A stretch of 64,000 nt of DNA from Spirochaetia bacterium (GCA_965203905.1 CBDBDQ010000005.1:3424001-3488000); one strand, 5' to 3'. Shown: positions 23,364 through 62,868, counted from the stretch's first letter. Notes: generated by a model from the letters alone, not told the origin. Program-made: numbers and translations.

Positions 23364-23412
23364 CTCTTGACCGCGGCCAGCACCTGCCCTGGAGGTCGAT
23401 CGCGATGCAAGC
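23364..23412 (-). pseudogene. Micro-remnant of the PIN toxin locus that is intact at 30530-31240
   Basis: tcttgaccgcggccagcacctgccc matches 30869-30893 (PGQVLAAVK). It is followed by cgcgatgcaagc, similar to the -35 region near 31224-31237. Confidence 0.55.
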
Positions 23413-23435
23413 GGTGCGGGCACACCTCGGAGGAC

Positions 23436-23775
23436 TCATAACGCAAGGACCAGCCGGAGACCGGCATCCACGTCGGCAAGGTCGTCCGACGTCAACCGGC
23501 CGGCCCGCTCTACAAGCCTTCTTTGATCGAGGCAGCTTACTTGCGACACGACAAGGACTGAAATCCTTGCTCAGACCCGACACCTCCGCGGCCACGAAGG
23601 CATTGCCCGGAGCATCGCCGAGCCGGAGGTTGGTGGTGAACGGTGCGCAGAGTACCGAGCCGATTCTGCTACGATTGAGACTGTCGGCCTGGACGATCAG
23701 GACGGGACGGCGGAATCCGGGTTCGGTGCCGAATGGAACGCCAAGGTCCGCCCACCAGATGTCACCACGAGTCAT
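23436..23775 (-). pseudogene. mazF: MazF/PemK toxin, frameshifted
   Basis: MTRGDIWWADL..EPGFRRPVLIVQAD..TTNL..PGN. A 1-nt insertion near 23562; the alternative frame continues SVLVVSQVSCLD..DVDAGLRLVLAL*. Confidence 0.85.
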
Positions 23776-24020
23776 TTCTCGTAAACTCGCGAAGACTTTC
23801 CAGTCCCGCATTCAGGGCACCAGGTGCGGGTGCCGCGCGATGGTCGCGATACACTTCGTTCAGACGCTCAGTCACGTCCGCCTGCTGGCGATTGCGCAAG
23901 AACTCCTCAAGCGCCATCGCGAAAAGCCGGCTGCGGGCAACGCCAAGTTCAGCCGCCACCAGTCCCAGGACCCGCCTCGGACTCTGCCGGAAGGGAGTCT
24001 GCCACTCCCGTACTTCCGTA
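23762..24020 (-). pseudogene. Ribbon-helix-helix antitoxin partner of MazF, degenerate 5' end
   Basis: AAELGVARSRLFAMALEEFL..VTERLNEVY..W*; overlaps the mazF start. Confidence 0.65.
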
Positions 24021-24180
24021 GTCGTGCCTCCAGGGAAGCGAAACTCGCCCTCACACGTGCGGATGAGACTCGCGAAGTGCTCGTCAAAGTCATAGTGGAG
24101 GTTCCCGCTTGCCATGCGCGTAACTCGCCCGGGCACCTTGCGGCCTGGTAGGTCCGACTTTCGTATGAGCGGCCGCGGAG

Positions 24181-24411
24181 CTATGACGCATCCCGGTGGA
24201 TCTCCACCGGCGTCAGCTTGTACACCCGCGCCATTCGTGAGGCTGTGCGTATGTCGCCCCGTCGCAGGGCGTCCCGAATGTCATCCAGACGATACGCATC
24301 GTCGAGCGTCAGGTAGGGGCTCCAGCCTCCTTCGCCTTCCATAAGATCAACGGATACCTCAGCGACATAGTTGCCTTCCCGTACCAGACGGGTCGTCTCT
24401 CGGTGGCTCAT
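24181..24411 (-). CDS. Small protein, putative antitoxin paired with DUF4258
   Basis: MSHRETTRLVREGNYVAEVSVDL..GWSPYL..RVYKLTPV. Coupled to the upstream gene by TGATG. Confidence 0.7.
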   Translation of the reverse strand: MSHRETTRLVREGNYVAEVSVDLMEGEGGWSPYLTLDDAYRLDDIRDALRRGDIRTASRMARVYKLTPVEIHRDAS

Positions 24412-24731
24412 CAAACCCTCCGCAGGTAGTCTTCCGTCCACAATACCGGGTCGGGCCGGTACGCAGTCACGATGACGGCCGGACTGTCCGATCCAGCCGG
24501 TATTCCCCAGAGGACATGGATGAATTGATCCCCCTCATCGCTCTGCCGGACCAGCACGCATGGCCCCTTCGGATAGTCGGGATAGTCTTCGACAAGAACG
24601 GCGCGACCGATGCCCCGTATCAACTCCCGTGTGCGGAGGCCGTCAGCTGCCGCTTCATCATACCCGTGAGCAGATACTCGGACCTCGCCGGCTGTGACGA
24701 GGCTCTTTACTCTGGCAAGGGTCCTACTCAC
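24411..24731 (-). CDS. DUF4258 domain protein (putative toxin)
   Basis: SAHGYDE..VEDYPDYPKGPCVLV..IHVLWG..VTAYRPDP..W. Confidence 0.8.
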   Translation of the reverse strand: MSRTLARVKSLVTAGEVRVSAHGYDEAAADGLRTRELIRGIGRAVLVEDYPDYPKGPCVLVRQSDEGDQFIHVLWGIPAGSDSPAVIVTAYRPDPVLWTEDYLRRV

Positions 24732-24805: not shown

Positions 24806-25075
24806 CTACTGCGCGTAGGGGGCGTCGGCGTCGCGCAGGCCGTCGCCGACGAAGTTGAAGGCCAGCACGGTGACCACGATCGCCACCCCGGGCAGGAACA
24901 GCCATGGCGCCAGCGCCACGGCGCGGATGTTCTGCACCCCGGTCAGCAGCACCCCCCAGCTTATCACCGGCTCGCGCAGCCCCAGGCCGAGGAAGCTGAG
25001 ACTGGTCTCGGCCAGGATCATCTCCGGCACGCGCAGCGTGAGCACGGCGATCAGGTGGCTGCTGAACGACGGCAC
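24806..25075 (-). pseudogene. 3' fragment of an ABC permease (copy of 33137-33405)
   Basis: PSFSSHLIAVLTLRVPEMILAETSLSFLGLG..GDGLRDADAPYAQ; near-identical DNA to the 33.1-33.4 kb copy. Confidence 0.85.
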
Positions 25076-25077
25076 TA

Positions 25078-25323
25078 ATCTCGTTCGGCAGGGTCGAGGC
25101 GCTGCGGCGGTACCTGGCGGACGAATTCGCCACCGGCACGTCGCCCGACGGCGGCTCGCCGCTCCACCACCTGCGCGACGACACCGACCACCTGGAACAG
25201 GTGATAGCCGCGCCCATCAAGGCGGGTGCGGACCTCACGGCCCGAGACTCGCACGGGCAGACGCCCCACGAGAGCGCCGTGCGCCGCGGGGAGGCCGCCG
25301 TCGCGGCCCTGCTGGCGCCCTGA
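25078..25323 (+). pseudogene. C-terminal fragment of an ankyrin-repeat protein
   Basis: Manual translation ISFGRVEALRRYL..GGSPLHHL..IKAGADLTARDSHGQTPHESAVRRGEAAVAALLAP*. No start codon. Confidence 0.75.
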
Positions 25324-25371
25324 CCCGCGGCCTTGGTCATGGTCATGGTGGCGGCGTGTTCATTCACGCAG

Positions 25372-25677
25372 TCAGGCGGCGATGTCGCGCCGGCCGTGCA
25401 GCACACGCCATACGTCGATGTGACCGTCATGCTCGACGTAGAACAACACGTAAGGGTAGCGCCGGAGGGCCCAGGAGCGTAGTTCCGGCACGTCCAGTTC
25501 CGAAGCATACCGGGATGACCCTGACGCGGGATACTGCGCTAGGTGCCGGTAGGCCCTTTCGAGTTCGTCGATGAAGCCAAGCGCAGCATGCGCCTCTCCT
25601 GTGCTGAGGTAGTGATCAAGCGCCTCGTCCACATCGCGAACGGCGCTCGCCCGTTGAACGACCGGCTTGGGGTTCAA
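25372..25677 (-). CDS. parE: ParE/RelE family toxin
   Basis: SAVRDVDEALDHY..FIDELERAYRHLAQYPASGS..YPYVLFY..RVLHGRRDI. Confidence 0.88.
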   Translation of the reverse strand: MNPKPVVQRASAVRDVDEALDHYLSTGEAHAALGFIDELERAYRHLAQYPASGSSRYASELDVPELRSWALRRYPYVLFYVEHDGHIDVWRVLHGRRDIAA

Positions 25678-25916
25678 CCGTGGGATCGTGAACGAACGCT
25701 GTCTCGCAGGTTGGCGAAGTCGGCGGCGTCCACCGGTTCCGACGCCGCCGACTCGGCCCCCTCCAACAGCAGCCGTCGCAGATGCTGCCGATCCTGATCG
25801 TGGCGGATCAGGGCGCGGACGTACTCGCTGCAGGTTCCGAAACCACGCCCGGAGACCTGTTCGTCCACGAACGACTTGAGCGTTGCCGGAAGCGAAATGT
25901 TCATCGTGGTATTCAC
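25674..25916 (-). CDS. parD: ParD-like antitoxin (CC2985 type)
   Basis: MNISLPATLKSFVDEQV..SEYVRALIRHDQ..LLLEG. Overlaps the toxin start. Confidence 0.88.
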   Translation of the reverse strand: MNTTMNISLPATLKSFVDEQVSGRGFGTCSEYVRALIRHDQDRQHLRRLLLEGAESAASEPVDAADFANLRDSVRSRSHG

Positions 25917-25923
25917 GTCGAGC

Positions 25924-25952
25924 AGGTTACGTAGAATGACAACAATTGGCAA
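25924..25952 (-). promoter_or_regulatory. Promoter of parDE
   Basis: On the minus strand TTGCCA, 17-bp spacer, TAACCT, then GTG start 7 nt downstream. Confidence 0.6.
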
Positions 25953-26077
25953 GACGCGAACGAGACGGGTGAGGCGGGACAGGCCGGGCACTACCGGGCC
26001 GGGAGCTAACCGTATTAGTAATGCCCCGGATGGTGGAATCGATGAAAGCGACGGCTTGGGGCCCGGTGCGATGAGGG

Positions 26078-26194: not shown

Positions 26195-26203
26195 TCGACT
26201 CTG

Positions 26204-27109
26204 TCATATGCCAGTTTGCCTGGCGCCCGCACCCAGACGACCACCACCACCCCGCAGCCGTGGGTCGAGCAGATCGCGCACCGCGTCGCCAAACATGTTG
26301 AGGCAGTACACGACGATCGTCAGGCACAGCCCCGGTAAGAGCGCCAGCCGCGGCGCCACCTCCATGTACTTGCGCCCTTCTCTGCTGAGCATGGCTCCCC
26401 AGCTCGGGATCTCCAGCGGCAGACCGAATCCCAGGAAACTCAAGCTGGCCTCGGCAATGATCACGCCTCCGATGTTGATCGAGAAGACGATGATGACGAC
26501 AGGTATGATATTGGGCAGCACATGGCGGATCAGGATGTGGCGCGTGGGGGTGCCCACCGCTTGGGCTGCCAGAAAGTAGTCATTCTCCTTGATGCCCATG
26601 ACGGCACCCCGGATGACTCTCGAGCCGCCGATGCCTCCGGCGATCCCCAAGACCAGGATGATCTGTGGCAAACCCTGCCCCACCACAGACATGATCGTCA
26701 GCAAGATCAGCAGCCCCGGAAAGGCCATCCAGGCATCGACAAAGCGCTGCACGGCCAGGTCCAGTTTCCCGCCAAAGTAGCCGGACGGTGCGCCTATCAG
26801 CACAGCCACCACGACATTGACCGTTGTCGCTGCCAGGCCGACGAAGAGCGAAATTCGGGCACCGTAGATCAGGCGGCTCAGGAGGTCCCGCCCCAGATGA
26901 TCGGTGCCCAGTAGATAGCGGCTCGATGGGCTGGTCAGCCGGTCTGCCAAATGGACTTCAGCCGGCTCATAGGGAGCCACTACACCGGCAAAAATGCTGA
27001 CGAAAACCAGGAACAGTACGACCACTCCCCCGCACGTGCCCAGCGGCTGCTCCTTCACCAGCCTTCGCAGCAACAGGCCCGGGAAAAACTGTCTCTTTGT
27101 CGGGTCCAT
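26204..27109 (-). CDS. ABC permease (DppC-like)
   Basis: LGTDHLGRD, EASLSFLGFG, PSWG and GDAVRDLLDPR. Confidence 0.92.
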   Translation of the reverse strand: MDPTKRQFFPGLLLRRLVKEQPLGTCGGVVVLFLVFVSIFAGVVAPYEPAEVHLADRLTSPSSRYLLGTDHLGRDLLSRLIYGARISLFVGLAATTVNVVVAVLIGAPSGYFGGKLDLAVQRFVDAWMAFPGLLILLTIMSVVGQGLPQIILVLGIAGGIGGSRVIRGAVMGIKENDYFLAAQAVGTPTRHILIRHVLPNIIPVVIIVFSINIGGVIIAEASLSFLGFGLPLEIPSWGAMLSREGRKYMEVAPRLALLPGLCLTIVVYCLNMFGDAVRDLLDPRLRGGGGRLGAGARQTGI

Positions 27110-27110
27110 G

Positions 27111-28073
27111 CTATCGATAACGAATCCGGGGATCCAAATAGGAATAGATGATATCGATCAACAGGTTGAACGTGAGCACGGCAGTGCCAAAAAACAGGTT
27201 GATGCCGGAGACTACCGGGTAATCTCTCTCCGTGAGGGCGATCAGCATCAGGCGTCCCAGCCCCGGAAGGTTGAAGATGTTCTCCATGATTACGGCGCCG
27301 CCTACTACGATAGGTAGCTGCAGGCCGACCAGGGTCACTACCGGAATGAGGGCGTTCTTGACGGCGTGCCTCACCACGACGACACGCTCCCTGAGACCCT
27401 TGGACCAGGCGGTGCGGATATAGTCCTGGCGGAGCACTTCCAGCATCATGGTGCGGGTCATGCGCATGGTGGCAGCAGACAAGGCCGTCCCCAGTATCAG
27501 GCTGGGAATGATGAGGATGCCGAGATTTCCCAGCGGGTCTTCGACAAGAGGGACATACTCCATCGGCGGCGACCAGCCCCACCAGATGGCCGGGAAGATC
27601 ATCACCATCAGCGCCAGCCAGAAGTTGGGCGTTGCCAAGCCGATGACGGCGAACGAACGCCCCACGTAGTCGGCGGCGGTGTTGCGGCGCATCGCCGAGT
27701 AGATGCCGACCGGCACTGCTATCAGCAACCCCATGACGACGGACAAAACGCCAAGCTCAATAGTCAGCGGTAATCTGTCCCAAATAGCCGCCTCCACCGA
27801 CCAGTCGCCTAAAAGTGAATTGCCAAGGGTGCCGCGCAGCAGGATACCTCCCATCCAGCGCCCATACTGCACGTACACGGGCTGGTCCAATCCCAACATC
27901 CGCGCGACAGCTTCACGGTCTATACTCGCACCCGCGCCCATGGCTTCCAGCCTACCCGCCATCGTATCTATTACATCACCCGGGATGAAACGGACCGAGA
28001 GAAAGACCAGTATGCTCAATATCAACAGCGTAGGGATGAGGAGCAATAGTCTCCTGATGACGTAGGCTCTCAT
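27111..28073 (-). CDS. ABC permease (DppB-like)
   Basis: MRAYVIRRLL, QDYIRTAWSKGL, RDYPV and DPRIRY. Confidence 0.92.
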   Translation of the reverse strand: MRAYVIRRLLLLIPTLLILSILVFLSVRFIPGDVIDTMAGRLEAMGAGASIDREAVARMLGLDQPVYVQYGRWMGGILLRGTLGNSLLGDWSVEAAIWDRLPLTIELGVLSVVMGLLIAVPVGIYSAMRRNTAADYVGRSFAVIGLATPNFWLALMVMIFPAIWWGWSPPMEYVPLVEDPLGNLGILIIPSLILGTALSAATMRMTRTMMLEVLRQDYIRTAWSKGLRERVVVVRHAVKNALIPVVTLVGLQLPIVVGGAVIMENIFNLPGLGRLMLIALTERDYPVVSGINLFFGTAVLTFNLLIDIIYSYLDPRIRYR

Positions 28074-28105
28074 TTCGGATGACTGCTCATCGTTCGACTG
28101 GAAGG

Positions 28106-28140
28106 AAAAAAAGCCCTCTCGCCGCGGGGCGGTGAGAGGG
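28106..28140 (-). terminator. Intrinsic terminator/attenuator between the SBP and permease genes
   Basis: Minus-strand hairpin CCCTCTCACCG..CGGCGAGAGGG followed by C and T7. Confidence 0.75.
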
Positions 28141-28160
28141 ACCAACGAGCTGGCTCGTGC

Positions 28161-29960
28161 TCAAAAACCCATTTCTTTCTTCAAATCCTGGTCAATCCAG
28201 AGGCGGGCGAAAAGGGAATACCAGTTAAGCCCCCCTAGGCCACCTTCCGAGTTGTACCCTTTGACCCACGGCTGGGTCACATTGAATTGTGGAACCTCAG
28301 GACCGGGAACACCCCAGACACTCTTCTTGAAGTACATGTCCATCTCCAGAATCGGCTCCCTCTGATCCTCAAAGGTGGTAGCGGCCTTGGCTCTCTCGAA
28401 CAACGCGTTAAAGACCGGGTCGTCGGATTTAGCTGGGTTCCCTACATATCCCGGAGTATATCTCAACATCGCATCGAATGAATCAGATAACGCACCAAAC
28501 GCGTAGTGCTGTAACCCCTGTTCCCTTTCAGGATCTTGGACAAATGCGGTCCATGTTGCATCAGCTGGCCGAGGATCGAGCCTCACATCGACGCCAATCT
28601 CACTCCAGTAGGCTGCGACCGCTTCTACCCAGCCAACATCCTCGGTGTCACGGAAGCTTGCCTTGGTCTTGAATCGAACGCCGTCCGCGCCGCGCGGATA
28701 GCCAGCTTCATCAAGCAGCTTCGCGGCCCCCTCGGGGTTATAGCTATAGGCATCCTTGACCTCCTGAGGCCACTCGTCAAACGGGACGTAGTAACCTGGC
28801 ACCCCTGTTTGCCCCCTAGGCGTTGTATCTCCATAGCCCTTGAAGTAGGTATTGTTGATGGTTTCGTGGTCCAGTGCCATGTTCATGGCCTTTCGCACCC
28901 GGATGTCGTCAAAGGGCGGCTCACTCACGTTGAAAATAAAACCATGATCCGCCCGTTCCGAATACTCGTTCAGCACGAGCTCGGGATTGGTTCTCTTGAG
29001 GCTCTCTGCCACGTCGATAGATCTTATCATGGCGCCGGAGCCGTGGTAACCACTGTAATCAATCTTACCGGAGCGTAGTGCCGCCAGACGGGTTGCTTCC
29101 TCCGGCATGAACAGGACCCTGAACTCGTCGACGTATGGCAGGCGGTTCTCCGAGAACTTCTCGTCGAAGCCCCAGTAATCAGGATTCTTGATATAGGTCA
29201 AGGAGCTACCATCGACAAAGTCAGTCAACTCAAAGGGCCCGGTACCGACAACATTTCGCCAATCGGAAACGTCACCGTGTTGCTGGATTACCTCGGGGGG
29301 CTGTATGGTCATAGTATACCAGTCCATAATCAGGATCGGGGCACGAAGGTATGGCTCCTTCAGCTTGAAAACTACGGTATATTCGTCGGTGGCCGTTATC
29401 GACTCGAATGGCACTGTGCCAAGCTCACCTGCTGTTGCGGCAATTTCAGTGAAGCCGCTGCCCAGACCCACCATACGGTGAAAGTTGTATTCGATATCCT
29501 CAGCAGTTAGCTCCCTACCGTTCATCGGCGCCTTGTTGTGCCACTGCACGCCCTTACGGATGTTGAAGACATACGTCAGTGGGTCGGGCTGCTCCCAGCT
29601 TTCAGCCAGCGCTCCCGTTATGACGTGGAGCGGCAAAGTGTAGCCACCCCTAAAGTGAAATTTGTCCCTATCTAGTGCCCAGTCCAGTTTGCCTAGCTTC
29701 TCCACGACGGCACCGCCAACATGAACAGGAAACCACGCCAAATAGGTGTCAAAAACCTTGTAATTCACTGCAGCGGCCTGGGTCAATGTTCCGCCATACT
29801 CTGGCGCGGTCACCATCTTGCCGGTGCTCGGGTCGAGCACCATCTCCTTTTCCGCGGCGGCTGCCGGCTGCTCTTCCGCGGGAGCGGCCGACAGGCCGGT
29901 CGCGGCCACAGCGAAGCCAATCAGTACCGCCAGATACTTCTTGAGCGTTGCGTAGCACAT
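28161..29960 (-). CDS. ABC transporter substrate-binding protein, family 5
   Basis: Signal peptide, PEYGGTL, LAESWEQPD, GTGPF, KNPDYW and LPYVD. RBS AGGAGG. Confidence 0.93.
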   Translation of the reverse strand: MCYATLKKYLAVLIGFAVAATGLSAAPAEEQPAAAAEKEMVLDPSTGKMVTAPEYGGTLTQAAAVNYKVFDTYLAWFPVHVGGAVVEKLGKLDWALDRDKFHFRGGYTLPLHVITGALAESWEQPDPLTYVFNIRKGVQWHNKAPMNGRELTAEDIEYNFHRMVGLGSGFTEIAATAGELGTVPFESITATDEYTVVFKLKEPYLRAPILIMDWYTMTIQPPEVIQQHGDVSDWRNVVGTGPFELTDFVDGSSLTYIKNPDYWGFDEKFSENRLPYVDEFRVLFMPEEATRLAALRSGKIDYSGYHGSGAMIRSIDVAESLKRTNPELVLNEYSERADHGFIFNVSEPPFDDIRVRKAMNMALDHETINNTYFKGYGDTTPRGQTGVPGYYVPFDEWPQEVKDAYSYNPEGAAKLLDEAGYPRGADGVRFKTKASFRDTEDVGWVEAVAAYWSEIGVDVRLDPRPADATWTAFVQDPEREQGLQHYAFGALSDSFDAMLRYTPGYVGNPAKSDDPVFNALFERAKAATTFEDQREPILEMDMYFKKSVWGVPGPEVPQFNVTQPWVKGYNSEGGLGGLNWYSLFARLWIDQDLKKEMGF

Positions 29961-30266
29961 GAATGCGCCTCCTGTTCCTCGAGAGCACGTAATTCAGTGC
30001 CGACCCCTCGCCTTCTCTCGAGGCATTCCTGCAGGTCGCAGGTTACGGAAGCGAGGGCGATACGTTCGCGTTCGAGCTGGCACGGTCACTCGACGTGAGC
30101 GGCGTTGGCTGCCGGGCTCCTGTCAGTCGTATCCTGTTAGTCGTATCCGGTCTTCGGTGGCATCCCGTTCCTCCTATGCGCCGGGTGAACCGCGACCGCT
30201 CGGCGGGCGTCGAGACCTGCATCCGAACGCCCCGCGGGTGGCCGGGACAGCGGCGAGAGTGGGGAA

Positions 30267-33800: not shown

Positions 33801-33802
33801 GA

Positions 33803-54278: not shown

Positions 54279-56084
54279 TCAACGGCTTCCGGTAATCCGC
54301 TCCCTCAGGTCCTGGTCGACCCAGACGTGCTTGGCGACGTCGTGCCAGCCCTGAATACCGGCGCCGATCAGCTCGCCGCTGTAACCCTTTACCCACGGCT
54401 GCCACAACTGCAAGTTAGTCTCGGGAACGCCGGCGATCACAACGGCATTCTCTATGATGTAGACCGCGGTCTCCTGGAACTGCCTTATCAACTCGTCCTG
54501 GTCCAGGGTTTGCGTGATCTTGCGGTAGGCATCGGTGACGCGTTCGTCGGTACCGCGGGAGTAGTTGGACGGATTGCCAGGGTCGTAGTACTGCTGCATC
54601 ACCGAGTAGGGATCCGCCCAGTTACCCCAGCTCGTGGCGATCATCGACTGATGCTCGCCCGCCGCGATACTCGACGAAAAGACCGTGGACTCCACCACGT
54701 TGAACTCGGCGTTGATTCCCACGTCGTCCCAGTAGCCGGCGTAGAGCTCGGCCCATTCCGCATCTGTCGGCTGAGTGAGCAATTCGAAGGTGAACCCGTC
54801 GGGATAGCCGGCTTGAGCAAGAAGCTCCCGGGCCTTGTCGGGATGGAATTCGAACAGCTCCCGGGCGCTGGCCCCTGAGCCGGGTATTTGCGGACTGGTG
54901 GGCAGCTCTTCAAACGGAACGTACAACGGAGCGTGGTGCGGGAAGTTGGGCCAGCCGAAGAGCAGAGCATTGCCCTGGTAGAACTCGTCGCGTATCTGAG
55001 CGTGCGGAATGGCGAGGTGAGCAGCCTGGCGAACGAGGAGGTTCTGCCAGGGGCTGCCTTCGATGTCCAGGCGCACGTTGAACACCCTTTGATTGATGAT
55101 GGCCGGACCCGACAGGATCTCGGGATTGGTCTCCTCAAGGCTCTCCTGCCACCTGGTGGCGATTCCCAGACCCGCCGTTCGGTCGAGCCTGCCGGCGCGT
55201 AGCGCCGCTATGACCCCTGCCTCATCCTCAAACGACACGATTCTCATCCCGTCCAGGTAGGGAAGCTGGTTCTCAGGATGAATGTGATCCGTTTGCCAGT
55301 AGTTCTCGTTCTTCTTGAAGGTTACGACACTGCCGGGGGTCATTTCCGTCGGTATGAACGCTCCCGTGCCGAGCGTGTTCCGCCAATCGGCCATGTTGAG
55401 ACCCTCGGTTTCCCGCGGCACCACGGCGGCGAACTGGGCGAAGAAGAACTGAGCCTGGGTCGCGTCCGGTTCGTCCAGAGTTATCTCCACGGTCATGTCA
55501 TCGACGGCCGTCCAGTGGTAGCCGAGGGTTTTGATGAAGTACTGGCCCCAGGAGAATACGAGGTCGTGGGCATCGACGTGGCGACCGTAGGCCGACTCCA
55601 GCGCATTGTTGGGCCGCGCCACGTCACTCCGCTCCCAGAACGGGACTCCGGGGCGAACGTGAAGAATGATGCGGGTCAGACTGGGTTGTTCCCAGCTCTC
55701 GACGAGCGCCCCCGTTTTCTTGTCGGGGGTGGGCGCCAGGAACACTCCATAGTCTCCGGTGCCGGAAGCTCCGCGCGCCCAGTCGACCTGGAGGAGTCGC
55801 TCATTGGTAACCTGGAGGGCCCAGGTCGTATGGGACGGGTCACCCGTTACCCAGGAGGACTCTGCCGGAAGCGCCAACTCGATGCTCTCGGTGTACATTC
55901 CACCGTATCGAGGCTTCTCTACTTCCTTGGTCATCATGGTTCCATCCGCGCGCATAAGCTCCACGGTCACCATTTCAGCCTCGGCGGCTGCGGATTCGGT
56001 TTCTCCCGTGGCCCAGAGGCCGGTCGCAGTCAGGACAAGGACCAACGCAACCGCGAAGGTCCTGGTAATGTGTACAATATTCAT
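54279..56084 (-). CDS. ABC transporter substrate-binding protein, family 5
   Basis: Signal peptide (WATGETE), PRYGG, LVESWEQP, GTGAF, NQLPYLD and QPWVKGY. Confidence 0.92.
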   Translation of the reverse strand: MNIVHITRTFAVALVLVLTATGLWATGETESAAAEAEMVTVELMRADGTMMTKEVEKPRYGGMYTESIELALPAESSWVTGDPSHTTWALQVTNERLLQVDWARGASGTGDYGVFLAPTPDKKTGALVESWEQPSLTRIILHVRPGVPFWERSDVARPNNALESAYGRHVDAHDLVFSWGQYFIKTLGYHWTAVDDMTVEITLDEPDATQAQFFFAQFAAVVPRETEGLNMADWRNTLGTGAFIPTEMTPGSVVTFKKNENYWQTDHIHPENQLPYLDGMRIVSFEDEAGVIAALRAGRLDRTAGLGIATRWQESLEETNPEILSGPAIINQRVFNVRLDIEGSPWQNLLVRQAAHLAIPHAQIRDEFYQGNALLFGWPNFPHHAPLYVPFEELPTSPQIPGSGASARELFEFHPDKARELLAQAGYPDGFTFELLTQPTDAEWAELYAGYWDDVGINAEFNVVESTVFSSSIAAGEHQSMIATSWGNWADPYSVMQQYYDPGNPSNYSRGTDERVTDAYRKITQTLDQDELIRQFQETAVYIIENAVVIAGVPETNLQLWQPWVKGYSGELIGAGIQGWHDVAKHVWVDQDLRERITGSR

Positions 56085-56450
56085 ACGTAACTCCCGTATG
56101 TTGATTCTTGAGAGTATTGCGGAGCGAATTGCCGCTCCCTGGCTACCCTCGCGCCCGCAACGCAGGAGGCCGGACCGAGTCAAATCCGTGAAGCGCGCGG
56201 CGTGTGACTCAGCGGGTTCACGTCGCGCGCGCGTGCGGTTCCTTGAGTATCATCTCGCACGTCCTCGTGCGCCGGCTGTTGTCGTGGCGCCTCATCGGCA
56301 TCCTTCCATCCCCGAACAGTGCAGGCCCTATCGTCACAGGCTCGCCTGACCATGTCAAGCGCGCGGACTCCGGCCGTTCCGGCCGGTTGCCCAGGGCGGT
56401 GCGCAGTAACCGGCTTGGGCAGCTCGTCCCGGGGCGCGCGGCCGAGGGCG

Positions 56451-57467
56451 CTACCGGGTCGGATCGTCACTCACCTGCACGAGCAGCTTGCCGAAGTTGG
56501 TGCCCTCCAGCATGCCGAGGAAGGCGGCCGGTGCGGTCTCCAGTCCGACGACCACCTGTTCCTTGTACTTGAGCGCGCCGCTGCGTACCCAGGTCGCCAG
56601 CAGCGCCAGCGCTTCCTCGTGGCGGTCGGCGAACTCGCCCTGGTTGAAGCCGCGCATGGTGGCCCGCCGGGAATGGATCAAGCGGCTCAGGTGAGGGCCG
56701 GTCCACTCGCTGCCTGGAGCGTCGTTGTATTCGGCGATGGCGCCACACAGGGACAGGCGGGCGCCCACGGCGAGGTGGGTAGCGACCGCGTCCATGACCC
56801 TGCCGCCGACGTTGTCGAAGTAGACGTCGATGCCGTCGGGACAGGCAGCGGCGAGTGCGGCCGGCAGGTCGTCCGTCTTGTAGTTGACGCACGCGTCGAA
56901 CTGCAGCTCGTCCACCACGTAGGCGCACTTCTCGGCCGTGCCGGCAATCCCGACGACGCGGCAGCCCTTCATCTTGGCGAGTTGGCCGACCACGGCGCCC
57001 ACCGCACCCGAGGCGGCGGATACCACCACGGTTTCCCCCGCGACCGGCTTGCCGACGTCCAGCAGACCGAAGTAGGCGGTGACGCCGGGCATGCCGACGA
57101 CGCCCAGGGCGGTGGTAATCGGCACCGGGCCCGGATCCAGCACCCGGAGCTGCGAACCGGAGACCGCGCCGTAACTCTGCCAACCGTAGCCGCCCACGTA
57201 TTGGCACACGATCTGCCCCGGCGCGAACCCGGCGGCGCGTGCGACCACCACCTCCCCGACCACCCCGCCGACCATGACCTCGCCGACCGCCCGGGGCGCG
57301 CTCATGCGGCCACGCATGTAGGGATCGAGCGAGACGTAGACGGTGCGCACCAGGACTTCGCCCGCCTGCGGTTGCGGTACCGGTCCCTCGACCAGCTCCA
57401 GGTCGTCGAGGCGCGGTCTGCCCGCCACCAGCCGGCGCAGCACCACCTGTTTGTTCGTTGCCTCCAT
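56451..57467 (-). CDS. NADP-dependent oxidoreductase (PGDH/CurA-like MDR family)
   Basis: SLDPYMRGRM, GMPGVTAYFG, SAASGAVG, DVYFDNVGG and NFGK. RBS AAGGAGG. Confidence 0.92.
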   Translation of the reverse strand: MEATNKQVVLRRLVAGRPRLDDLELVEGPVPQPQAGEVLVRTVYVSLDPYMRGRMSAPRAVGEVMVGGVVGEVVVARAAGFAPGQIVCQYVGGYGWQSYGAVSGSQLRVLDPGPVPITTALGVVGMPGVTAYFGLLDVGKPVAGETVVVSAASGAVGAVVGQLAKMKGCRVVGIAGTAEKCAYVVDELQFDACVNYKTDDLPAALAAACPDGIDVYFDNVGGRVMDAVATHLAVGARLSLCGAIAEYNDAPGSEWTGPHLSRLIHSRRATMRGFNQGEFADRHEEALALLATWVRSGALKYKEQVVVGLETAPAAFLGMLEGTNFGKLLVQVSDDPTR

Positions 57468-57487
57468 GGTTTCCTCCTTCTTTAACC

Positions 57488-57920
57488 TTAACGCGCGGAG
57501 TGACCGCCATCGACGGTGTAAATGGTGTAAATGCCGCCGGTGCAGTGGGCGCTGTCGTCGCTGGCCAGGAACAGCATCATCTTCGCCACGTCCGCGGCCT
57601 GGCCGTAGTGCCCCAGCGGGATCCCCGCGACCGCCCGTTCTTTCCACTTCTCACCCTCGCCGGGCACGTACTGGTCCTCGATCGAACGCATCATCCGGGT
57701 CTCGATCGGGCCGGGGTTCACCGTGTTCACGCGGATGCCATGCTTGCCTCCCTCCAAGGCCGCACATCGCATCAGGCCGATCACCGCATGCTTGCTGGTG
57801 TGATAGGGAGCCATGCCGGCCAGACCCTTCAGTCCCGCCAGAGAGGAGGTGATGACGATGCTGCCGCCGCGTTCCTGCATCACTGCCATCACGTACTTGA
57901 GGCCCAACCACACGCCACGG
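57488..57920 (-). pseudogene. 5'-truncated short-chain dehydrogenase (SDR)
   Basis: YHTSKHA, IRVNTVNPGPIET and VDGG are present but the NAD-binding N-terminus is missing. 9-bp duplication (IYTIYT). Confidence 0.85.
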
Positions 57921-58268
57921 ACAAGCTGTTCGAACGCCGCGTCTCGTCAGTGTCACTCGACGGAATGCTGGGTACCGAGGATCTGCTGTCGGCGTTCGAC
58001 GTGAACAAATTCGGCACCGAGGCGCTGCTGTTCCAGACCGGCTACCTGACCATCACGGAAGAACAGGAACTGGGCGGCAAGGCACTGTACCGGCTTGGTT
58101 GTCCCAACCGGGAGGTGCGGCAGAGCCTGAATGAGCATCTGCTGCGCCACCTGGTCCAGGATTCAGACCGGCAGACCGCCAACAGCATCCGCCTGGCCCG
58201 GCTGCTGGAGGCGCACGACTGCGCCGGCATGAAGGAGTTGTTCCACTACCAATGGTACACCAACAACA
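57919..58268 (+). pseudogene. Internal fragment of the AAA-ATPase/nuclease gene (copy of 46201-46570)
   Basis: DKLFERRVSSVSLDGMLGTED..ALLFQTGYLTI..QWYT. Confidence 0.88.
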
Positions 58269-58271
58269 CGC

Positions 58272-58354
58272 GGAATCCGCGTCACCGGAACCATCGGCAC
58301 CTCCAGGCGCTCTGCGCTGATCGCACCGTTTCCGCCGAGGAAGCTGACGGCATC
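58272..58354 (+). pseudogene. Fragment resembling the C-terminus of a DUF3368 PIN-domain protein
   Basis: GIRVTGTIG, frameshift, LQALCADRTVSAEEADGI. Confidence 0.4.
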
Positions 58355-58552
58355 GAGCGTCTGAGACGGAACCCAATGCGTGTCTTCGGATTCCACCGCC
58401 GCAGCGGTCTGCTGAGGATGGAGCATCGGCGGCTTGGCGGCGACGCGGTGGAGGAGAGCATCGCCCAGCCGCTGCCTTCTGGGTGGCCACCATGGTGATC
58501 GCGTTCGGCCACTCAGCGACCGTTGTACAGCCGTACAGGAGTGGGGGATTGT

Positions 58553-59167
58553 GTGGGCGTGATCAGGGTCGTGTTGACGGATTTCGATGGGGTGATTCGG
58601 CAGTGGCCGGCTCCTTTCGCACAATCGATCGAGGAACGGTACGGCCTGGAGCGGGGCAGCCTGGCTCGAACGGCGTTCGATGAATCGATCGTGGGCGACG
58701 CGATCACCGGGCGGGTAACGGACTCCGAGTGGCGTGAGCGGGTCGCACGGCGGCTCGGATCGCACACCGATCCGGCCACTGCCGCCGCGGCGGTGGCGGC
58801 ATGGTCGGCCAGCCCCGGGGTCGTGGATGCTGCCGCTCTGGATGTTCTCCAGTCAGTGCGCTCGGGGGCTGCCCTCGGTCTGGTCACGAATGCCACCACC
58901 AGGCTTGCCCGCGACCTGTCCCGGCTCGCTCTGGACAGTGCATTCGACTTCGTCGTCAGCTCCGCGGCGATCGGCTGCGCCAAGCCGTCGGGATGCTTCT
59001 ACGAGCATGCCGCGCGACGCTGCCGATGTCCCCGCGCGGAGGTGGTGTTCGTGGACGATCGTCCGGAGAACGTGGCTGCCGCGATCGACTTCGGATTCCG
59101 TGGACATCACTACCGCGATCCACGGACGCTGAAACGAGTGCTGCGTGAATGCGGCATGATTCGGTAG
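58553..59167 (+). CDS. HAD-superfamily hydrolase (copy 3, intact)
   Basis: DFDGV, TNAT, AKP and FVDDRPEN. Confidence 0.88.
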   Translation: MGVIRVVLTDFDGVIRQWPAPFAQSIEERYGLERGSLARTAFDESIVGDAITGRVTDSEWRERVARRLGSHTDPATAAAAVAAWSASPGVVDAAALDVLQSVRSGAALGLVTNATTRLARDLSRLALDSAFDFVVSSAAIGCAKPSGCFYEHAARRCRCPRAEVVFVDDRPENVAAAIDFGFRGHHYRDPRTLKRVLRECGMIR

Positions 59168-59242
59168 AGTCGGGGTTGTCAGGTGGGCGCCTGGTGGACT
59201 ATTACGGACTCGACAGCAGCGCCATGCTGGTCGGAGGGTGCC

Positions 59243-60469
59243 ATGACGGAGACGTTTTCGGTGCCGGACTACGATGCCTATCCCGTGGTGCGGGCGCTCG
59301 GTGGCGCGCGCATCGTGGATGGCGACGTGGAGGTCCGCTGGGATGACGGCAGCGCCAGCGCGCTGCCGGGGGTGTGGCTGCGCGAGTTCAGCCCGGACCT
59401 CGGCACCATTCACCCGGTGACCCGGGAGCAGGTGATCATGCTCGTGGACCTGCCGGAGGATCTGCGCGCCGCCGTTGCGCAGGTACTGCCGGACGGCCGG
59501 CTCGCGGTTACCTGGCAGCCGGAGGGCCTGGTGAGCCACTACCACCCCGGCTGGCTGTGGGCGCATCGCCCGGAGTCGCCGGATGCCGCGGCACTGCCGG
59601 AGCGCCGCCTATGGCAGACCGGACGCGCGCAGCAGACGCCGATCACGCGGGTGGAAGGCGCCGCCATCCGCGCCGGCGACGAGGCGGCGCTCGGCGCCTG
59701 GCTCACGGCGATCCACTTCGACGGACTGAGCATCGTCGAGCATCTCCCGGCCGACCCGGACATGGTGCCGGAGATTCCGTACCGCATCGGCTGCCTGCGC
59801 AACTCCAACTTCGGCGAGATCTGGGAGGTGGAGAGCCGCCCGGATGCGGACAGCAACGCCTTCACCAGCGTGGCCCTGGCGGCGCACAACGACCTCTGCA
59901 CCCGTGAGTACGTGCCCGGTTTGCAGTTCCTGTTCTGCCTGCACAACTCCTGCAGCGGCGGCGACAGCATATTCGTCGACGGCTACGCCGTGGCCGAGCA
60001 GCTCCGAGCCGCCTCTCCCGCCGACTTTGCCGTCCTGACCACGGTGGCGGTCCCGTTCGCCACCCGCAACCGGGACTCCGATCACCGCTGTTGCGCTCCG
60101 GTGCTGGAGCTCGACGCCGCCGGTGAAGTCGCAAACGTGCGCTACACCTGGTGGTTGCGCAACCCGATGCGGGGCGACAGCGCCACGATCAAGGCGTTCT
60201 ACGCCGCCTTCAAGCGATTTCAGCGCCTGGCGAACGACCCCGGCAACCAGCTCCGGCTGCGGCTGCAGGCGGGAGAAATGGCCTGCTTCGACAACCGCCG
60301 CCTGCTACATGGCCGCACCGCCTTCGATCCGTCGAGCGGCCGTCGCTGGTTGCGCGGCTGCTACGGCGAGCGGGAGGAGCTGGAGTCCCGGCTGCGGATG
60401 CTGGGGCGGGCCGAGCGGAGGCGCCAGGTGGAACGGGATTCGCGGCCGGCGACGCCGGCCGTCATCTGA
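59243..60469 (+). CDS. Gamma-butyrobetaine hydroxylase-like TauD family dioxygenase
   Basis: N-terminal GBBH-like domain (VWLRE..TREQ), HND, PGLQFL, GGDSIFVDG, FDNRRLLHGR and LRGCY. Sits next to carnitine genes. Confidence 0.85.
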   Translation: MTETFSVPDYDAYPVVRALGGARIVDGDVEVRWDDGSASALPGVWLREFSPDLGTIHPVTREQVIMLVDLPEDLRAAVAQVLPDGRLAVTWQPEGLVSHYHPGWLWAHRPESPDAAALPERRLWQTGRAQQTPITRVEGAAIRAGDEAALGAWLTAIHFDGLSIVEHLPADPDMVPEIPYRIGCLRNSNFGEIWEVESRPDADSNAFTSVALAAHNDLCTREYVPGLQFLFCLHNSCSGGDSIFVDGYAVAEQLRAASPADFAVLTTVAVPFATRNRDSDHRCCAPVLELDAAGEVANVRYTWWLRNPMRGDSATIKAFYAAFKRFQRLANDPGNQLRLRLQAGEMACFDNRRLLHGRTAFDPSSGRRWLRGCYGEREELESRLRMLGRAERRRQVERDSRPATPAVI

Positions 60470-60489
60470 GCGCGGCGCGGAGTCGGCCG

Positions 60490-61398
60490 GTGGCCCTGGC
60501 GATCGCACGAGAAGTATTCATCACCGCTGCCGTGACCGGGGCCGGCGCCACCGAGGAGCGCAGCCCTCACGTGCCGCGCAGTCCGCGCCAGGTCGCCGCC
60601 AGCGCGCTCGAGGCGGCGCGGGCGGGAGCCGCCGTGGTGCACTGCCACGTGCGCGATCCCGAGACCGGAGCCCCCAGCCGCAAGCTGGAGTATTACCGCG
60701 AGGTGACCGACCGGATCCGCGCCGCGGAGGTGGACGTGGTGCTCAACCTCACCACCGGCATGGGAGGCGACATGGTGTTCGGCAGCCCCGAGCGGCCGCT
60801 GCCCCTGCATCCGCGCACCGACATGGCCGGCGCCGCCGAGCGCATGGCCCACATCGCGGAGTGCCTGCCGGAGATCTGCACCCTCGACTGCGGCAGCATG
60901 AACTACGCCGAGGCGGAGTACGTGATGACCAACACGCCGGGCATGCTGCGGGCGATGGCCGGGATGATGCGGGAGCTGGGGGTGAAGCCGGAGATCGAGG
61001 CCTTCGACAGCGGCCACCTGTGGTTCGCCAGACGGCTGGTGGAGGAGGGACTGGTGGAACCGCCGCCGCTGGTCCAGCTCTGCATGGGGATTCCCTGGGG
61101 CGCGCCGGACGATCTGAGCACGTTCCTGGCGCTGGTCAACAACGTGCCCGAGGACTGGGTGTTCTCCGCCTTCGCGATAGGGCGCAACGAAATGCCCTAC
61201 GTCGCCGCCGCCGTGCTGGCGGGTGGCAACGTGCGCGTCGGCCTGGAGGACAACCTGTACCTCGAACGGGGGGTACTGGCGACCAACGCCCAGCTCGTGG
61301 AGCGCGCCGTCGCCATCATCGAGAGCCTGGGGGCGCGGGTGATCGGCCCGCAGCGCGTGCGCGAGCGGCTGGAGCTTACCAGGCGGGTTCCGCGGTGA
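60490..61398 (+). CDS. Beta-keto acid cleavage enzyme (BKACE/Kce family), probably 3-dehydrocarnitine cleavage
   Basis: ITAAVTGAG, VHCHVRDP, PEICTLDCG and RVGLEDN. Confidence 0.9.
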   Translation: MALAIAREVFITAAVTGAGATEERSPHVPRSPRQVAASALEAARAGAAVVHCHVRDPETGAPSRKLEYYREVTDRIRAAEVDVVLNLTTGMGGDMVFGSPERPLPLHPRTDMAGAAERMAHIAECLPEICTLDCGSMNYAEAEYVMTNTPGMLRAMAGMMRELGVKPEIEAFDSGHLWFARRLVEEGLVEPPPLVQLCMGIPWGAPDDLSTFLALVNNVPEDWVFSAFAIGRNEMPYVAAAVLAGGNVRVGLEDNLYLERGVLATNAQLVERAVAIIESLGARVIGPQRVRERLELTRRVPR

Positions 61399-62852
61399 AG
61401 GCCGCCATCGTCGGCGGCGGGGTGATCGGCAGCGGCTGGGCGGCGCGCTTCCTGCTCAACGGCTGGGACGTGGCGGTGTCCGATCCCGCGACCGATGCGG
61501 AACGGCGGCTGCGGGTGGTAGTGGCCGATGCCCGCCGCAGCCTGCCCGCGCTGTACGATCGCGCGTTGCCGGCGGAAGGTGCCCTAAAGTGGTGCCCGAC
61601 CGTGGCAGCCGCGGTTACCGACGCCGACTGGATCCAGGAGAGCGTGCCCGAACGGCTGTCCGCCAAGCACCGCGTGCTGGAAGAGATTCAGCGCCATGCG
61701 CCGCGCCAGGCGCTGGTGGCGTCCTCTACCTCGGGCTTCACACCTACCGAGCTGCAGCGCGGCTCCCGCTTTCCGGAACAGATCCTGGTGTGTCACCCGT
61801 TCCACCCGGTGTACCTCCTGCCGCTGGTGGAGGTGGTGGCCTCGGCGGCGACGGCGGCGCCCCCTCGTGACCGTGCCATCGAACTGCTGCGGGGGATCGG
61901 CATGCATCCGTTGCATATCCGCAAGGAGATAGGCGCCCACGTCGCGGACCGGCTGCTGGAGGCGGTGTGGCGCGAGTCGTTGTGGCTGGTTCGGGACGAG
62001 ATCGCCACCACCGGCGAGATCGACGACGCGATCCGCTACGGCTTCGGCTTGCGCTGGGCGCAGATGGGACTGTTCGAGAGCTATCGGATCGCCGGCGGCG
62101 CGGCCGGAATGAAGCACTTCATCGCGCAGTTCGGTCCGGCCTTGCAGTGGGACTGGTCGCGGCTGACCGACGTGCCCGAGTTGACCGACGAGCTGGTGGA
62201 GCGCATCGCGCAGCAGTCCGAGCGCCAGTCAGGCCGGTACGACCTGCGCCAACTGGAACGCATGCGGGACGACAACCTGGTTGCCATCCTGCGTGCCCTG
62301 AAGCAGAACGGCCACGGTGCCGGCAGCGCGATCGCGCTCCATGAGCGCGGCCTGAACCAGCCGCGGGCCGAAGCCGGGATCCTTCCGCTCACGGTGGCGC
62401 GGCAGGTCCCGCAGAGCTGGACCGACTACAACGGGCACATGAACGAAGCCCACTACCTGGAGCTGTTCGCACAGGCCAGCGACCGGCTCATGGAGCTGGT
62501 CGGCGCCGACGCCGACTACATCGCCGGCGGCAGGAGCTACTTCACGGTGGAGACCCACCTCCGCCACCTGGACGAGGTGCGGGCGGGCGAATCGATTCGG
62601 GTTACCACCCGGATCCTGGCCGGAAAAGGCAGCAAGCTGCACCTGTTTCACCGCCTGGAGAACGGCGGGAAGCTCGCCGCCACCGGCGAGCACCTCCTGC
62701 TGCACGTGAACCTGCAGACACGGCGCAGTTGCCCGCCGGAACCGGAGGTCGCGGCCCGGTTGGCCCGGCTGGGCGCCCGCCACGCCGGCCTGCCCTACCC
62801 GGAGGGGGCGGGTCGCTCCGTCGGGCAGGCAACTGCGGCGCGGGATCGGTGA
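61395..62852 (+). CDS. lcdH: L-carnitine 3-dehydrogenase fused to betainyl-CoA thioesterase
   Basis: GGGVIGSGWAARF, QESVPE, SSTSG, YLLPLVE and GLRWAQMG; C-terminal hot-dog domain WTDYNGHMNE. Confidence 0.92.
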   Translation: MKAAIVGGGVIGSGWAARFLLNGWDVAVSDPATDAERRLRVVVADARRSLPALYDRALPAEGALKWCPTVAAAVTDADWIQESVPERLSAKHRVLEEIQRHAPRQALVASSTSGFTPTELQRGSRFPEQILVCHPFHPVYLLPLVEVVASAATAAPPRDRAIELLRGIGMHPLHIRKEIGAHVADRLLEAVWRESLWLVRDEIATTGEIDDAIRYGFGLRWAQMGLFESYRIAGGAAGMKHFIAQFGPALQWDWSRLTDVPELTDELVERIAQQSERQSGRYDLRQLERMRDDNLVAILRALKQNGHGAGSAIALHERGLNQPRAEAGILPLTVARQVPQSWTDYNGHMNEAHYLELFAQASDRLMELVGADADYIAGGRSYFTVETHLRHLDEVRAGESIRVTTRILAGKGSKLHLFHRLENGGKLAATGEHLLLHVNLQTRRSCPPEPEVAARLARLGARHAGLPYPEGAGRSVGQATAARDR

Positions 62853-62868
62853 GCGTGGGGCAGCTCCG

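Follow-up and report, generated by a model that had tools for sequence, protein, structure and literature searches.

Displacement arrays of type VI secretion system (T6SS) effector-immunity, Rhs and contact-dependent inhibition (CDI) loci are described, in passages of PMC5361080, as horizontally acquired modules that enter without an integrase, anchored by homology at one end and joined illegitimately at the other; the 3' part of the resident gene is pushed downstream, leaving strings of truncated, same-direction relics or orphan 3' ends. Homology-facilitated illegitimate recombination (HFIR) has been demonstrated by experiment in a few competent species, where it is a rare event, according to the portions of PMC5361080 and PMC3240628 consulted. 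Transformation-triggered merodiploidy, as outlined in excerpts of PMC3784515, yields direct tandem duplications bordered by partial repeats through RecA-type pairing and without a site-specific enzyme. How toxin-antitoxin (TA) and defence genes accumulate in chromosomal islands without mobility genes is a standing question. Here, a stretch of 64,000 nucleotides from a genome titled 'Spirochaetia bacterium' (the window; bases 3,424,001-3,488,000 of a 7.79-Mb contig) was analysed, in which truncated copies of an ATP-binding cassette (ABC) permease gene, an alpha/beta hydrolase gene and a carnitine-type gene cluster recur in series with other genes between them.

The assembly comprises 7.99 Mb in five contigs, with 66% G+C, a single 16S gene, a marker completeness of 98.7% and a marker 'contamination' of 7.9%. 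At 8.0 Mb the genome is the largest of its genus, the other members of which span 2.9-7.0 Mb. The lineage carries well over a hundred Dpp-like ABC operons, and 168 near-full permease-C loci were counted in this genome. A first-pass annotation, made from the sequence alone, had proposed that homologous DNA with new cargo was added here next to resident alleles by an integrase-independent route, and that the redundant flanks were then eroded by deletion. The locus is a real, unusually legible, recombinase-free recombination scar field, and the region is most likely a plasticity zone of the chromosome built by ordinary homologous together with illegitimate recombination, lying between a thiamine pyrophosphate (TPP)-enzyme gene on one side and the gamma-glutamyltranspeptidase (GGT) / MR_MLE backbone on the other.

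Serial copies in direct orientation

Genes were mapped by Pfam searches of 122 + 29 + 62 open reading frames (ORFs) together with six-frame BLASTP; positions, counted from the first letter of the window, are collected in Table 1. Self-BLASTN of the window returned 22 non-self matches, of which 22 were direct, so that the common orientation claimed at first pass held throughout. These matches included lcdH (50553-51615 to 61435-62485, 93.4%), the alpha/beta hydrolase (31293-32134 to 34583-35424, 93.0%), a HAD gene (46889-47529 to 58522-59167, 84.2%), the 3' end of a DppC-like permease gene (24808-25075 to 33139-33405, 95.5%), the thioesterase end of lcdH (47556-47878 to 62536-62856, 86.8%) and an AAA-nuclease gene (46201-46528 to 57919-58246, 84.5%). 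A third HAD copy lies at 38809-39375 (71%), and the hydrolase N-terminal relic abh0' was added by six-frame BLASTP. Six of the nine gene families listed in the first-pass annotation as present in two or three copies were borne out as copies or relics. The 'small antitoxin' copy was weak, consisting of matches of 32-48 bp only (E 1.6e-4 to 5.5e-4, self-BLASTN), and ankyrin and ricin-lectin genes were not found, with zero Pfam matches in 122 + 62 scanned ORFs. The two Dpp operons, Dpp1 and Dpp2, were 65-73% alike and are ordinary old paralogs, from a genome with well over a hundred of them, and not copies of one neighbourhood.

Three truncated units, each made up of a DppC-like permease 3' end and an alpha/beta hydrolase, stand in series: abh0' with C'', abh1 with C', and abh2 fused to B', a 58-codon piece of the upstream permease. 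To the right, a segment of the carnitine-type cluster is present in three partial copies in series. The first, at 45.3-47.9 kb, runs from an AAA-nuclease gene through HAD' to a thioesterase end; the second, at 50.55-51.66 kb, consists of lcdH' and a second thioesterase end; and the third, at 57.9-62.9 kb, opens with an AAA-nuclease fragment, after which comes the intact HAD-GBBH-BKACE-lcdH cluster. The window thus holds serial relics in one direction with new genes between them, namely C'' (89 codons), C' (about 220) and B' (58), then abh0', abh1 and abh2, and TE', TE'' and the intact thioesterase end. A silent-cassette or antigenic-variation reading was ruled out, as the fragments are those of metabolic enzymes.

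Between the copies lie ParDE, a PIN-RHH pair, a DUF4258 pair, a MazF-like ORF, a helix-turn-helix (HTH) gene with a DUF6036 nucleotidyltransferase gene, a RecQ-UvrD gene, two AAA + PD-(D/E)XK genes and two whole Dpp operons. The cargo also includes an AAA_14/DUF4143 gene. The cargo named at first pass was accordingly recovered in part: ParDE, the HTH-nucleotidyltransferase pair, RecQ-UvrD, AAA ATPases, ABC operons and a PemK/MazF-like ORF were found; MazE and HigB were not identified.

Junctions and the absence of mobility genes

No integrase, transposase, reverse transcriptase or att/attC-like repeat had been seen at first pass, and none was found in the window by profile searches, ORF scans and inspection of repeat families. 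Phage_integrase (PF00589), rve and DDE_Tnp_1 had no match in the window, with 28, 12 and 12 in the genome, and the nearest rve was about 180 kb away; other transposase families were covered only by ORF-wise Pfam scans. Reverse transcriptase had no match among the scanned ORFs, no genome-wide search for it having been made. No recombinase occurred among the 32 flank ORFs within 20 kb on either side. The window contains no tRNA or tmRNA gene, and such a gene was thereby ruled out as an insertion target. Among the 20 largest of at least 60 direct-repeat families in 22000-64000, all of them gene-derived, there was no recurrent junction motif, and the candidate of an attC- or REP (repetitive extragenic palindromic)-like junction motif was set aside on these families.

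Each of seven inspected junctions was an abrupt switch of sequence with 2-7 bp of microhomology, and the junction sequences were mutually unrelated; the junctions are illegitimate joins. The homology of C'' runs from the stop codon to 25075/25076, where the ParDE block takes over. HAD' and TE' are joined by a 3.4-kb deletion with 3-5 bp of junction microhomology, and abh2 and B' meet at 2-3 bp.

Congeners and the ancestral locus

Congeneric genomes are given below as G001, G003 and so on. The congener locus L038 holds an intact co-directional operon, Peripla_BP_6 - DppA - DppD - DppF - DppB - DppC (381 aa) - hydrolase, and in G010 the hydrolase abuts the TPP gene. Against L038, the window has typA in the place of DppA-D-F and of most (the 5' part) of DppB, and HTH34-abh2 has taken the place of the DppB/DppC junction (about 600 bp). 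Of the permeases of this operon type, the window keeps only B' (58 codons), C' and C'', and the TPP-proximal unit is cut to abh0' + C''. Residues 29-221 of C' were 92-98% identical in amino acids to congeners, whose gene is intact at 381 aa, and B' was 92-97% identical. The gene typA, of which the genome has no other copy, behaves as a single-gene cassette in the island. Judged from a congener, its ancestral neighbourhood is a clean 123-bp gap at C5:2183468-2183591.

In G007 an empty spacer of about 30 bp separates the permease stop from the hydrolase start; in five genomes, G004, G006 and G010 included, this spacer holds different inserts. Site-specific targeting of the DppC stop codon was considered and rejected: the inserts share no ends, though the spacer is an insertion hot spot in these five genomes. 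A short conserved stretch before the DppC stop in three genomes resembles the serial 3'-end relics. In G001 (L010, L009) the spacer holds two to four tandem 41-bp units, each consisting of the last ~20 bp of the permease and ~20 bp of spacer, a stutter in miniature.

Related but differently arranged stacks are present in congeners. In G001, two hydrolase + permease-end units lie 25 kb from each other and TPP fragments are duplicated; G004 carries the Dpp1 operon one and a half times, together with two hydrolase fragments. The stacked arrangement is genus-wide as well as genome-wide. None of Phage_integrase, rve and DDE_Tnp_1 occurs in the islands of G007 and G010; the G001 island has 2 rve, and that of G004 has 1 integrase and 3 rve, all mid-island in much larger islands and away from the stacked units. 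No paper on the locus of this lineage was found in the literature searches made.

Two types of hydrolase N-terminus were distinguished, which alternate between congeners at one and the same position behind DppC. The N-terminus of abh0' was 65-72% identical to type II (G003, G004, G006) and 43-46% to type I, and that of abh1 was 66-71% identical to type I. Dpp2 (52177-56287) was 96.7% identical to G005 over 4116 bp, with sharp ends and unrelated flanks; backbone genes were 81-90% identical to congeners. Since the excess of island over backbone identity was modest (85-97% for the island against 81-90%), island-wide identity was discarded as evidence and Dpp2 alone was used.

Genome-wide repeat profile

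Chromosomal repeat pairs of at least 200 bp and at least 80% identity were counted, pairs within 20 kb being termed local. Local pairs numbered 210 direct and 16 inverted (13:1), against 1589 and 1712 beyond 200 kb, and local repeats formed 96 spans totalling 0.81 Mb. The window has 6 such pairs, placing it at the 93rd percentile of 966 sliding windows; it is thus enriched without being the richest place, the region at 1.18-1.27 Mb reaching 28. Among 59 fragmentary permease-C loci, 39 were C-terminal parts and 13 N-terminal.

By identity, 103 low-copy local direct pairs were distributed as 17 at 80-85%, 27 at 85-90%, 38 at 90-95% and 20 at 95-98%, with a single pair (1/103) above 98% and none (0/103) at 99.5% or more; the assembly kept 58 distant pairs of at least 99.5%. 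Comparison of intact genes with fragments gave dN/dS values (nonsynonymous to synonymous substitution rates) of 0.09-0.39 in 6/6 pairs, and the fragments carried few indels. The copies, 84-95% identical, are old and bear a signature of divergence under purifying selection. The few indels and low dN/dS indicate that divergence mostly preceded inactivation and took place while both genes worked.

Origin of the copies

The N-terminal allele types, the dN/dS values, the age profile of the repeats and the Dpp2 cassette favour copies that had already diverged when they came to stand side by side. One relic, abh0', next to the ancestral flank, differs in allelic type, by its N-terminal sequence, from the intact neighbouring copy abh1. 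We tentatively prefer the reading, plausible though short of probable, that allelic DNA which had already diverged was added next to the resident copy through illegitimate recombination anchored by homology, and was eroded afterwards. DNA from a related genome, carrying a diverged allele of the resident block together with other genes, would have integrated beside the resident copy and not replaced it. The incoming DNA would have been anchored by homology at one end and joined illegitimately, at 2-7 bp of microhomology, at the other, by HFIR or displacement. The direct repeats would then have been 5-15% diverged at birth, so that RecA-dependent collapse would be poor. TA modules between the repeats may penalise their loss, and microhomology-mediated deletions would have trimmed the redundant copies to the present relics. 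Import of the second copies, uptake of DNA and a stabilising role of the TA genes are inferred; TA genes opposing deletion of dispensable regions are a reviewed stabilisation model, with negative tests for some chromosomal TA pairs, in the sections of PMC2654758 consulted. The genome encodes one Ku, one ComEC and two DprA, the presence of which is only permissive.

Several points weigh against this reading. ComEC was present in 10/14 and DprA in 11/14 control genomes and hence says little on competence. The cores of abh1 and abh2 (alignment columns 375-600) were 96-97% alike, nearer to each other than to most congeners, with only G003 comparable, and the two hydrolase copies of G001 group together; this likeness and the pairing in G001 fit in-situ duplication or gene conversion. 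Among the relatives searched (sets of 20 and 12), none matched lcdH', HAD', TE' or abh2 better than the second copy in the window itself, and for none of the fragments was a donor above 97% identified. HFIR is orders of magnitude rarer than ordinary homologous recombination, as stated in the part of PMC5361080 consulted. The shortage of young repeats would be explained just as well by rapid loss of tandem copies that are nearly identical, or by a burst long ago, and the history is too eroded to assign one homologous and one illegitimate end to any single event. The stacking and erosion proposed at first pass stand as the leading reading, on the absence of a recombinase, the microhomology joints, the allele types and Dpp2; in-situ duplication comes close behind it, and the searches yielded no donor.

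That rival, which we regard as possible if rather unlikely, holds that tandem segmental duplication in situ, by unequal crossing-over between nearby paralogous ABC or AAA-nuclease genes or by replicative template switching (fork stalling and template switching, FoSTeS, or microhomology-mediated break-induced replication, MMBIR), gave copies that long stayed functional, now and then undergoing gene conversion, before a recent wave of microhomology deletions and the arrival of cargo. Direct orientation is its default product, the copies in the window are direct and adjacent, and the local 13:1 bias across the genome suggests a general tandem process. It is also consistent with the hydrolase cores being nearest to each other in the window and likewise in G001, and with the size of the genome, the largest of the genus, and its huge paralog families; the microhomology at the joints fits template switching as well, and the low dN/dS is compatible with duplication if both copies were long kept. 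Ongoing birth of copies should nevertheless leave young ones, of which the low-copy local pairs hold one above 98%. In addition, abh0' and abh1 carry different, trans-specific N-terminal types, and the Dpp2 cassette, with its match to another species and unrelated flanks, shows that foreign blocks do enter here.

An unrecognised or lost mobile agent, either an insertion sequence (IS) or integrase since lost or an element of a new kind, is improbable. A candidate for such an element would be the AAA + PD-(D/E)XK (DUF1703-like) genes, which form three families with 70 loci scattered over the genome (44 near-full and 26 fragmentary), are multi-copy in every congener searched and form tandem arrays at 1.20-1.25 Mb. 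Three of these genes, at 2-1492, 45289-46889 and 49085-50556, are located at block borders of the window, and family (i) occurs in the permease/hydrolase spacer of G006 and beside a relic in G004. Such an agent would agree with the presence of rve and integrase genes in G001 and G004, the islands of which are expanded, and with the behaviour of Dpp1, Dpp2, TypA and ParDE as sharp-ended cassettes. Against it, AAA-nuclease loci were not enriched at repeat-bearing spans (7/96, compared with 7.4 +/- 2.4 in 300 shuffles) and were weakly enriched near permease ends, 25/70 being within 5 kb of DppC 3' ends (shuffle mean 16, maximum 26, 200 shuffles). On these counts the genes were ruled out as break-maker or driver, and they are treated as cargo. 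Their homology stops where the genes end, and no terminal repeats were seen; the G007 and G010 islands lack all three recombinase families; and transposition yields both orientations, not a direct bias of 13:1.

An assembly artefact, in which a long-read metagenome assembler threads allelic stretches of co-occurring related strains or species one after another, is very improbable. The assembly is of the metagenome-assembled genome (MAG) type with the marker 'contamination' given above, variants 95-99% related co-occur in the same runs, and records of close congeners are also titled MAG, so that a class-wide artefact is conceivable, but k-mer (Logan) contigs of run X20, 100% identical to the window, cross HAD'/TE' (46961-47620), TE'/X (47593-48263), the end of lcdH' into Dpp2 (51553-56058) and the AAA fragment into HAD (58029-58579) at an even depth of 7.1-10 over both copies. 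Contigs of runs X21 and X22, which come from another sample and another study, agree fully with the window across 51544-52233 and 51553-51942, and the left end of Dpp2 is crossed by contigs of all three runs. The copies, 84-95% alike and 0.3-1 kb long, are too diverged and short to mislead overlap assembly, congeners carry their own related stacks, and more than 10 junctions fall within about 40 kb, a distance that a few long reads would probably cover. With 0.84 of the sampled words, X20 may be the source sample, and so represents a different algorithm and not independent data. The crossings are those among the contigs listed, and stretches with no listed long contig were not read as absence. 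Short contig 'joints', the smaller arm of which measured 20-27 letters, such as 51518>60442 in four runs, were attributed to paralogs or to other organisms and set aside.

Returning to the stacking of diverged alleles, a broader claim is doubtful: that recombinase-free stacking of diverged alleles from co-resident congeners, by illegitimate joining anchored in homology, is routine in these host-associated bacteria, serving as a main driver of defence/TA islands and of the growth of genomes in the genus from about 4.6 to 8 Mb, and moving whole operons and even single housekeeping genes such as typA as cassettes. If this were true, copies 5-15% diverged at birth would escape RecA collapse, and the TA cargo between them would penalise loss.

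Cargo and other features

Table 1. Features of the window from 23.3 kb to the right-hand end, with the match or method on which each assignment is based.
Feature	Position	Strand	Basis
PIN gene relic, 38 bp	23360-23397	-	87% to 30863-30900
PemK/MazF-like toxin ORF (cargo)	23359-23811	-	PF02452, E 1.2e-12
abh0', alpha/beta hydrolase N-terminal relic, allelic type II	23936-24106	-	44% aa to abh1 N-terminus
DUF4258 toxin (24411-24731) and upstream small ORF (cargo TA pair)	24181-24731	-	PF14076, E 4.5e-12
C'', final 89 codons of DppC-like permease, relic	24806-25075	-	95.5% to 33139-33405
ParE/ParD cassette	25079-25991	-	PF05016 + PF03693
Dpp1 operon cassette (DppC, B, A)	26199-30226	-	Pfam
PIN_3 toxin and RHH_6 antitoxin	30530-31175	-	Pfam; hydrolase neighbour in G006 too
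abh1, intact alpha/beta hydrolase, N-terminal type I	31281-32324	-	Pfam, N-terminus comparison
825-bp insert in permease-stop/hydrolase-start spacer	32316-33140	-	Comparison with congeners
C', 3' two-thirds of DppC-like permease; premature stop at 33232, foreign N-terminus	33139-33900	-	Comparison with congeners
HTH_3 protein (HTH34)	33955-34581	+	Pfam; PD-Lambda-2_B-like in PADLOC
abh2 (34583-35424, without N-terminus) fused in frame to B' (35420-35594, DppB-like codons ~275-333)	34574-35594	-	93% to abh1
TypA/BipA	35621-37465	-	Pfam; only copy in genome
Backbone pair: Peripla_BP_6 binding protein (-) and HAD0 (+, 38770-39438)	37544-39438	-/+	Pfam
RecQ-UvrD fused helicase, 1771 aa (defence-like cargo)	39614-44932	-	Pfam; DpdF/PsyrT-like and GajB-like in PADLOC
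AAA-ATPase_like + PDDEXK_9 gene, family ii, split across three frames	45289-46889	+	Pfam
HAD', copy of the HAD gene of the cluster	46889-47529	+	84.2% to 58522-59167; dN/dS 0.34
TE', thioesterase end of lcdH	47556-47878	+	86.8% to 62536-62856
X module, DUF6036 nucleotidyltransferase and HTH_3 protein (cargo)	47969-49091	-	Pfam
AAA_22/AAA_35 + PDDEXK_9 gene, family iii, internal 646-bp deletion	49085-50556	+	92-93% to C5:4838134-4840253
lcdH' (50553-51615) and TE'' (51609-51664), 5'-truncated lcdH, ~290-bp internal deletion	50553-51664	+	93.4%; dN/dS 0.25
Dpp2 operon cassette (DppC, B, A)	52177-56287	-	96.7% to G005 over 4116 bp
Zinc-type alcohol dehydrogenase and 5'-truncated short-chain dehydrogenase (SDR) fragment (57488-57913)	56451-57913	-	Pfam
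AAA-nuclease (family ii) internal fragment, adjoining SDR fragment	57919-58246	+	84.5% to 46201-46528
Intact cluster HAD - GBBH/TauD - BKACE - lcdH-thioesterase	58522-62856	+	Pfam
Gamma-glutamyltranspeptidase (GGT), right-hand backbone	62869-64000	+	Pfam; 85-87% to congeners

In G004 a PIN gene abuts or is fused to the same hydrolase N-terminal relic as lies near the PIN relic of the window. The DUF4258 pair was 93-94% identical in amino acids to a pair elsewhere in the island of G001, and HTH34 accompanies the hydrolase in G001, G003 and G004 (synteny). Dpp1 was 90-92% identical to G001, G004, G005 and G006, at an unrelated location in G001. The Peripla_BP_6 protein and HAD0 were 89-92% and 82-85% identical to the syntenic congener genes. 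Copies of the ParDE cassette (25079-25952) with 76% identity lie on an 18.9-kb contig (C2:16172-17028) and at C5:2889646-2890502. The 825-bp spacer insert encodes a small repeat protein (32491-32916) built of 33-nt (11-residue) tandem repeats, with five overlapping 66-nt copies at 33-nt spacing; paralogs of this protein adjoin the AAA-nuclease arrays at 1.235-1.248 Mb.

In the right part, the RecQ-UvrD fusion has a 51% paralog at C5:2778327-2783453. The ORF at 45335-47050 carries PF09820 (AAA-ATPase_like) and PF08011 (PDDEXK_9), and the gene at 2-1492 carries PF09820 only. AAA-nuclease family ii has about 31 loci in the genome, and the intact copy of family iii (564 aa) carries AAA_35/AAA_22 and matches PDDEXK_9 weakly, scoring 21.4 bits where the cut-off is 25.5. 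The X module comes after GGT in G004 and G006. Within lcdH', at 50649-50735, a 13-bp tandem duplication missing from the intact gene has the look of slippage-type decay. The stretch at 55964-56276, around the start of the Dpp2 binding-protein gene, was 68-87% identical to about 28 other places and resembles a common ABC-operon leader or upstream region. Paralogs of the alcohol/short-chain dehydrogenase block are located at C5:935210 (88%) and 944197 (78%), and the GBBH-to-lcdH part of the intact cluster was 78-87% identical to six congeners. Outside the stacked region, a non-coding repeat of ~110 bp at 12802-12914 has 17 other chromosomal copies, 83-96% identical and in both orientations, resembling a miniature inverted-repeat transposable element (MITE) or REP sequence.

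For one protein of the window, the nearest matches (94-98% aa) were in long single-contig MAGs titled 'Spirochaetia bacterium' (L038-L040, L071), and the next-nearest (L041-L053) were titled 'Chloroflexota' (88%) and 'Caldilineaceae' (69-72% aa). The lineage is probably Chloroflexota-like, and the 'Spirochaetia' title probably a taxonomic mislabel. Sponge- or coral-labelled metagenome runs carry 0.10-0.26 of the sampled words of the window, a hint of habitat only.

Comparison with known systems

Elements with dedicated enzymes differ from the locus at several points. For an integron, the window and flank ORFs lack intI (PF00589) and the junctions lack attC-like repeats, inverted repeats having had no separate scan. 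Chromosomal integron arrays, in the parts of PMC2654758 consulted, likewise stockpile cargo in one direction with interspersed TA modules, and it is from them that the stabilisation model for TA genes derives, but the window stockpiles whole operons and fragments of genes and not promoter-less cassettes. An integrative island, prophage or integrative and conjugative element (ICE) would differ from the window, which has no integrase and no tRNA and is bordered by gene fragments. An IS-bounded composite element would differ in that neither rve nor DDE_Tnp_1 occurs in the window or in the islands of G007 and G010.

The expansion of DUF1703 genes in symbionts is paralleled in the cargo. In Cardinium cCpun at least 25 DUF1703 paralogs recombine with each other, as given in the excerpt of PMC6387759 consulted, and the AAA-nuclease genes of the window have the same two Pfam domains and belong to the 70 loci of this genome. 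The parallel concerns cargo and not stacking, is drawn from another lineage, and showed no tie to the repeats of the window.

If only ordinary duplication and decay were at work, the locus would be a routine scar field of a large, paralog-rich genome. As it stands, it is a well-resolved natural example outside polymorphic-toxin loci, in which stacked allelic relics, microhomology joints and a cross-species operon cassette occur together and for which a complete assembly and several congeners exist. The 13:1 direct bias, few young copies and low dN/dS of relics form a testable signature that could separate import-and-stack from duplicate-and-decay elsewhere.

Among processes without a site-specific enzyme, transformation-triggered merodiploidy is the nearest in-situ mechanism and shares direct duplications with the locus, but its duplications, in the excerpts of PMC3784515, are 100-900 kb, identical at birth and unstable, whereas the units here are 1-7 kb, 84-95% alike and decayed. 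HFIR in natural transformation shares integration without an integrase and short microhomology at the illegitimate end, matched by joints of 2-7 bp in the window, and had been named at first pass as a known process that might apply; it usually replaces, whereas the window shows stacking. Displacement arrays, as far as they are set out in the consulted passages of PMC5361080, are paralleled by the series of 3' remnants of a single permease, with a hydrolase copy after each, and by the three thioesterase ends. They differ in that the window has no polymorphic toxin/immunity logic, its displaced units being the end of an ABC operon, a hydrolase and a catabolic cluster; the genome retains no 'main' permease copy in intact form; and the cargo consists of TA/defence genes and whole operons, with a homologous anchor not demonstrable for any single event. 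The first-pass view that the layout matches no named system was not upheld, as HFIR, T6SS/Rhs displacement arrays (PMC5361080) and transformation-triggered tandem duplication (PMC3784515), on the portions of these sources consulted, give the same picture; the region was most likely built by known kinds of process and not by a new mobile system.

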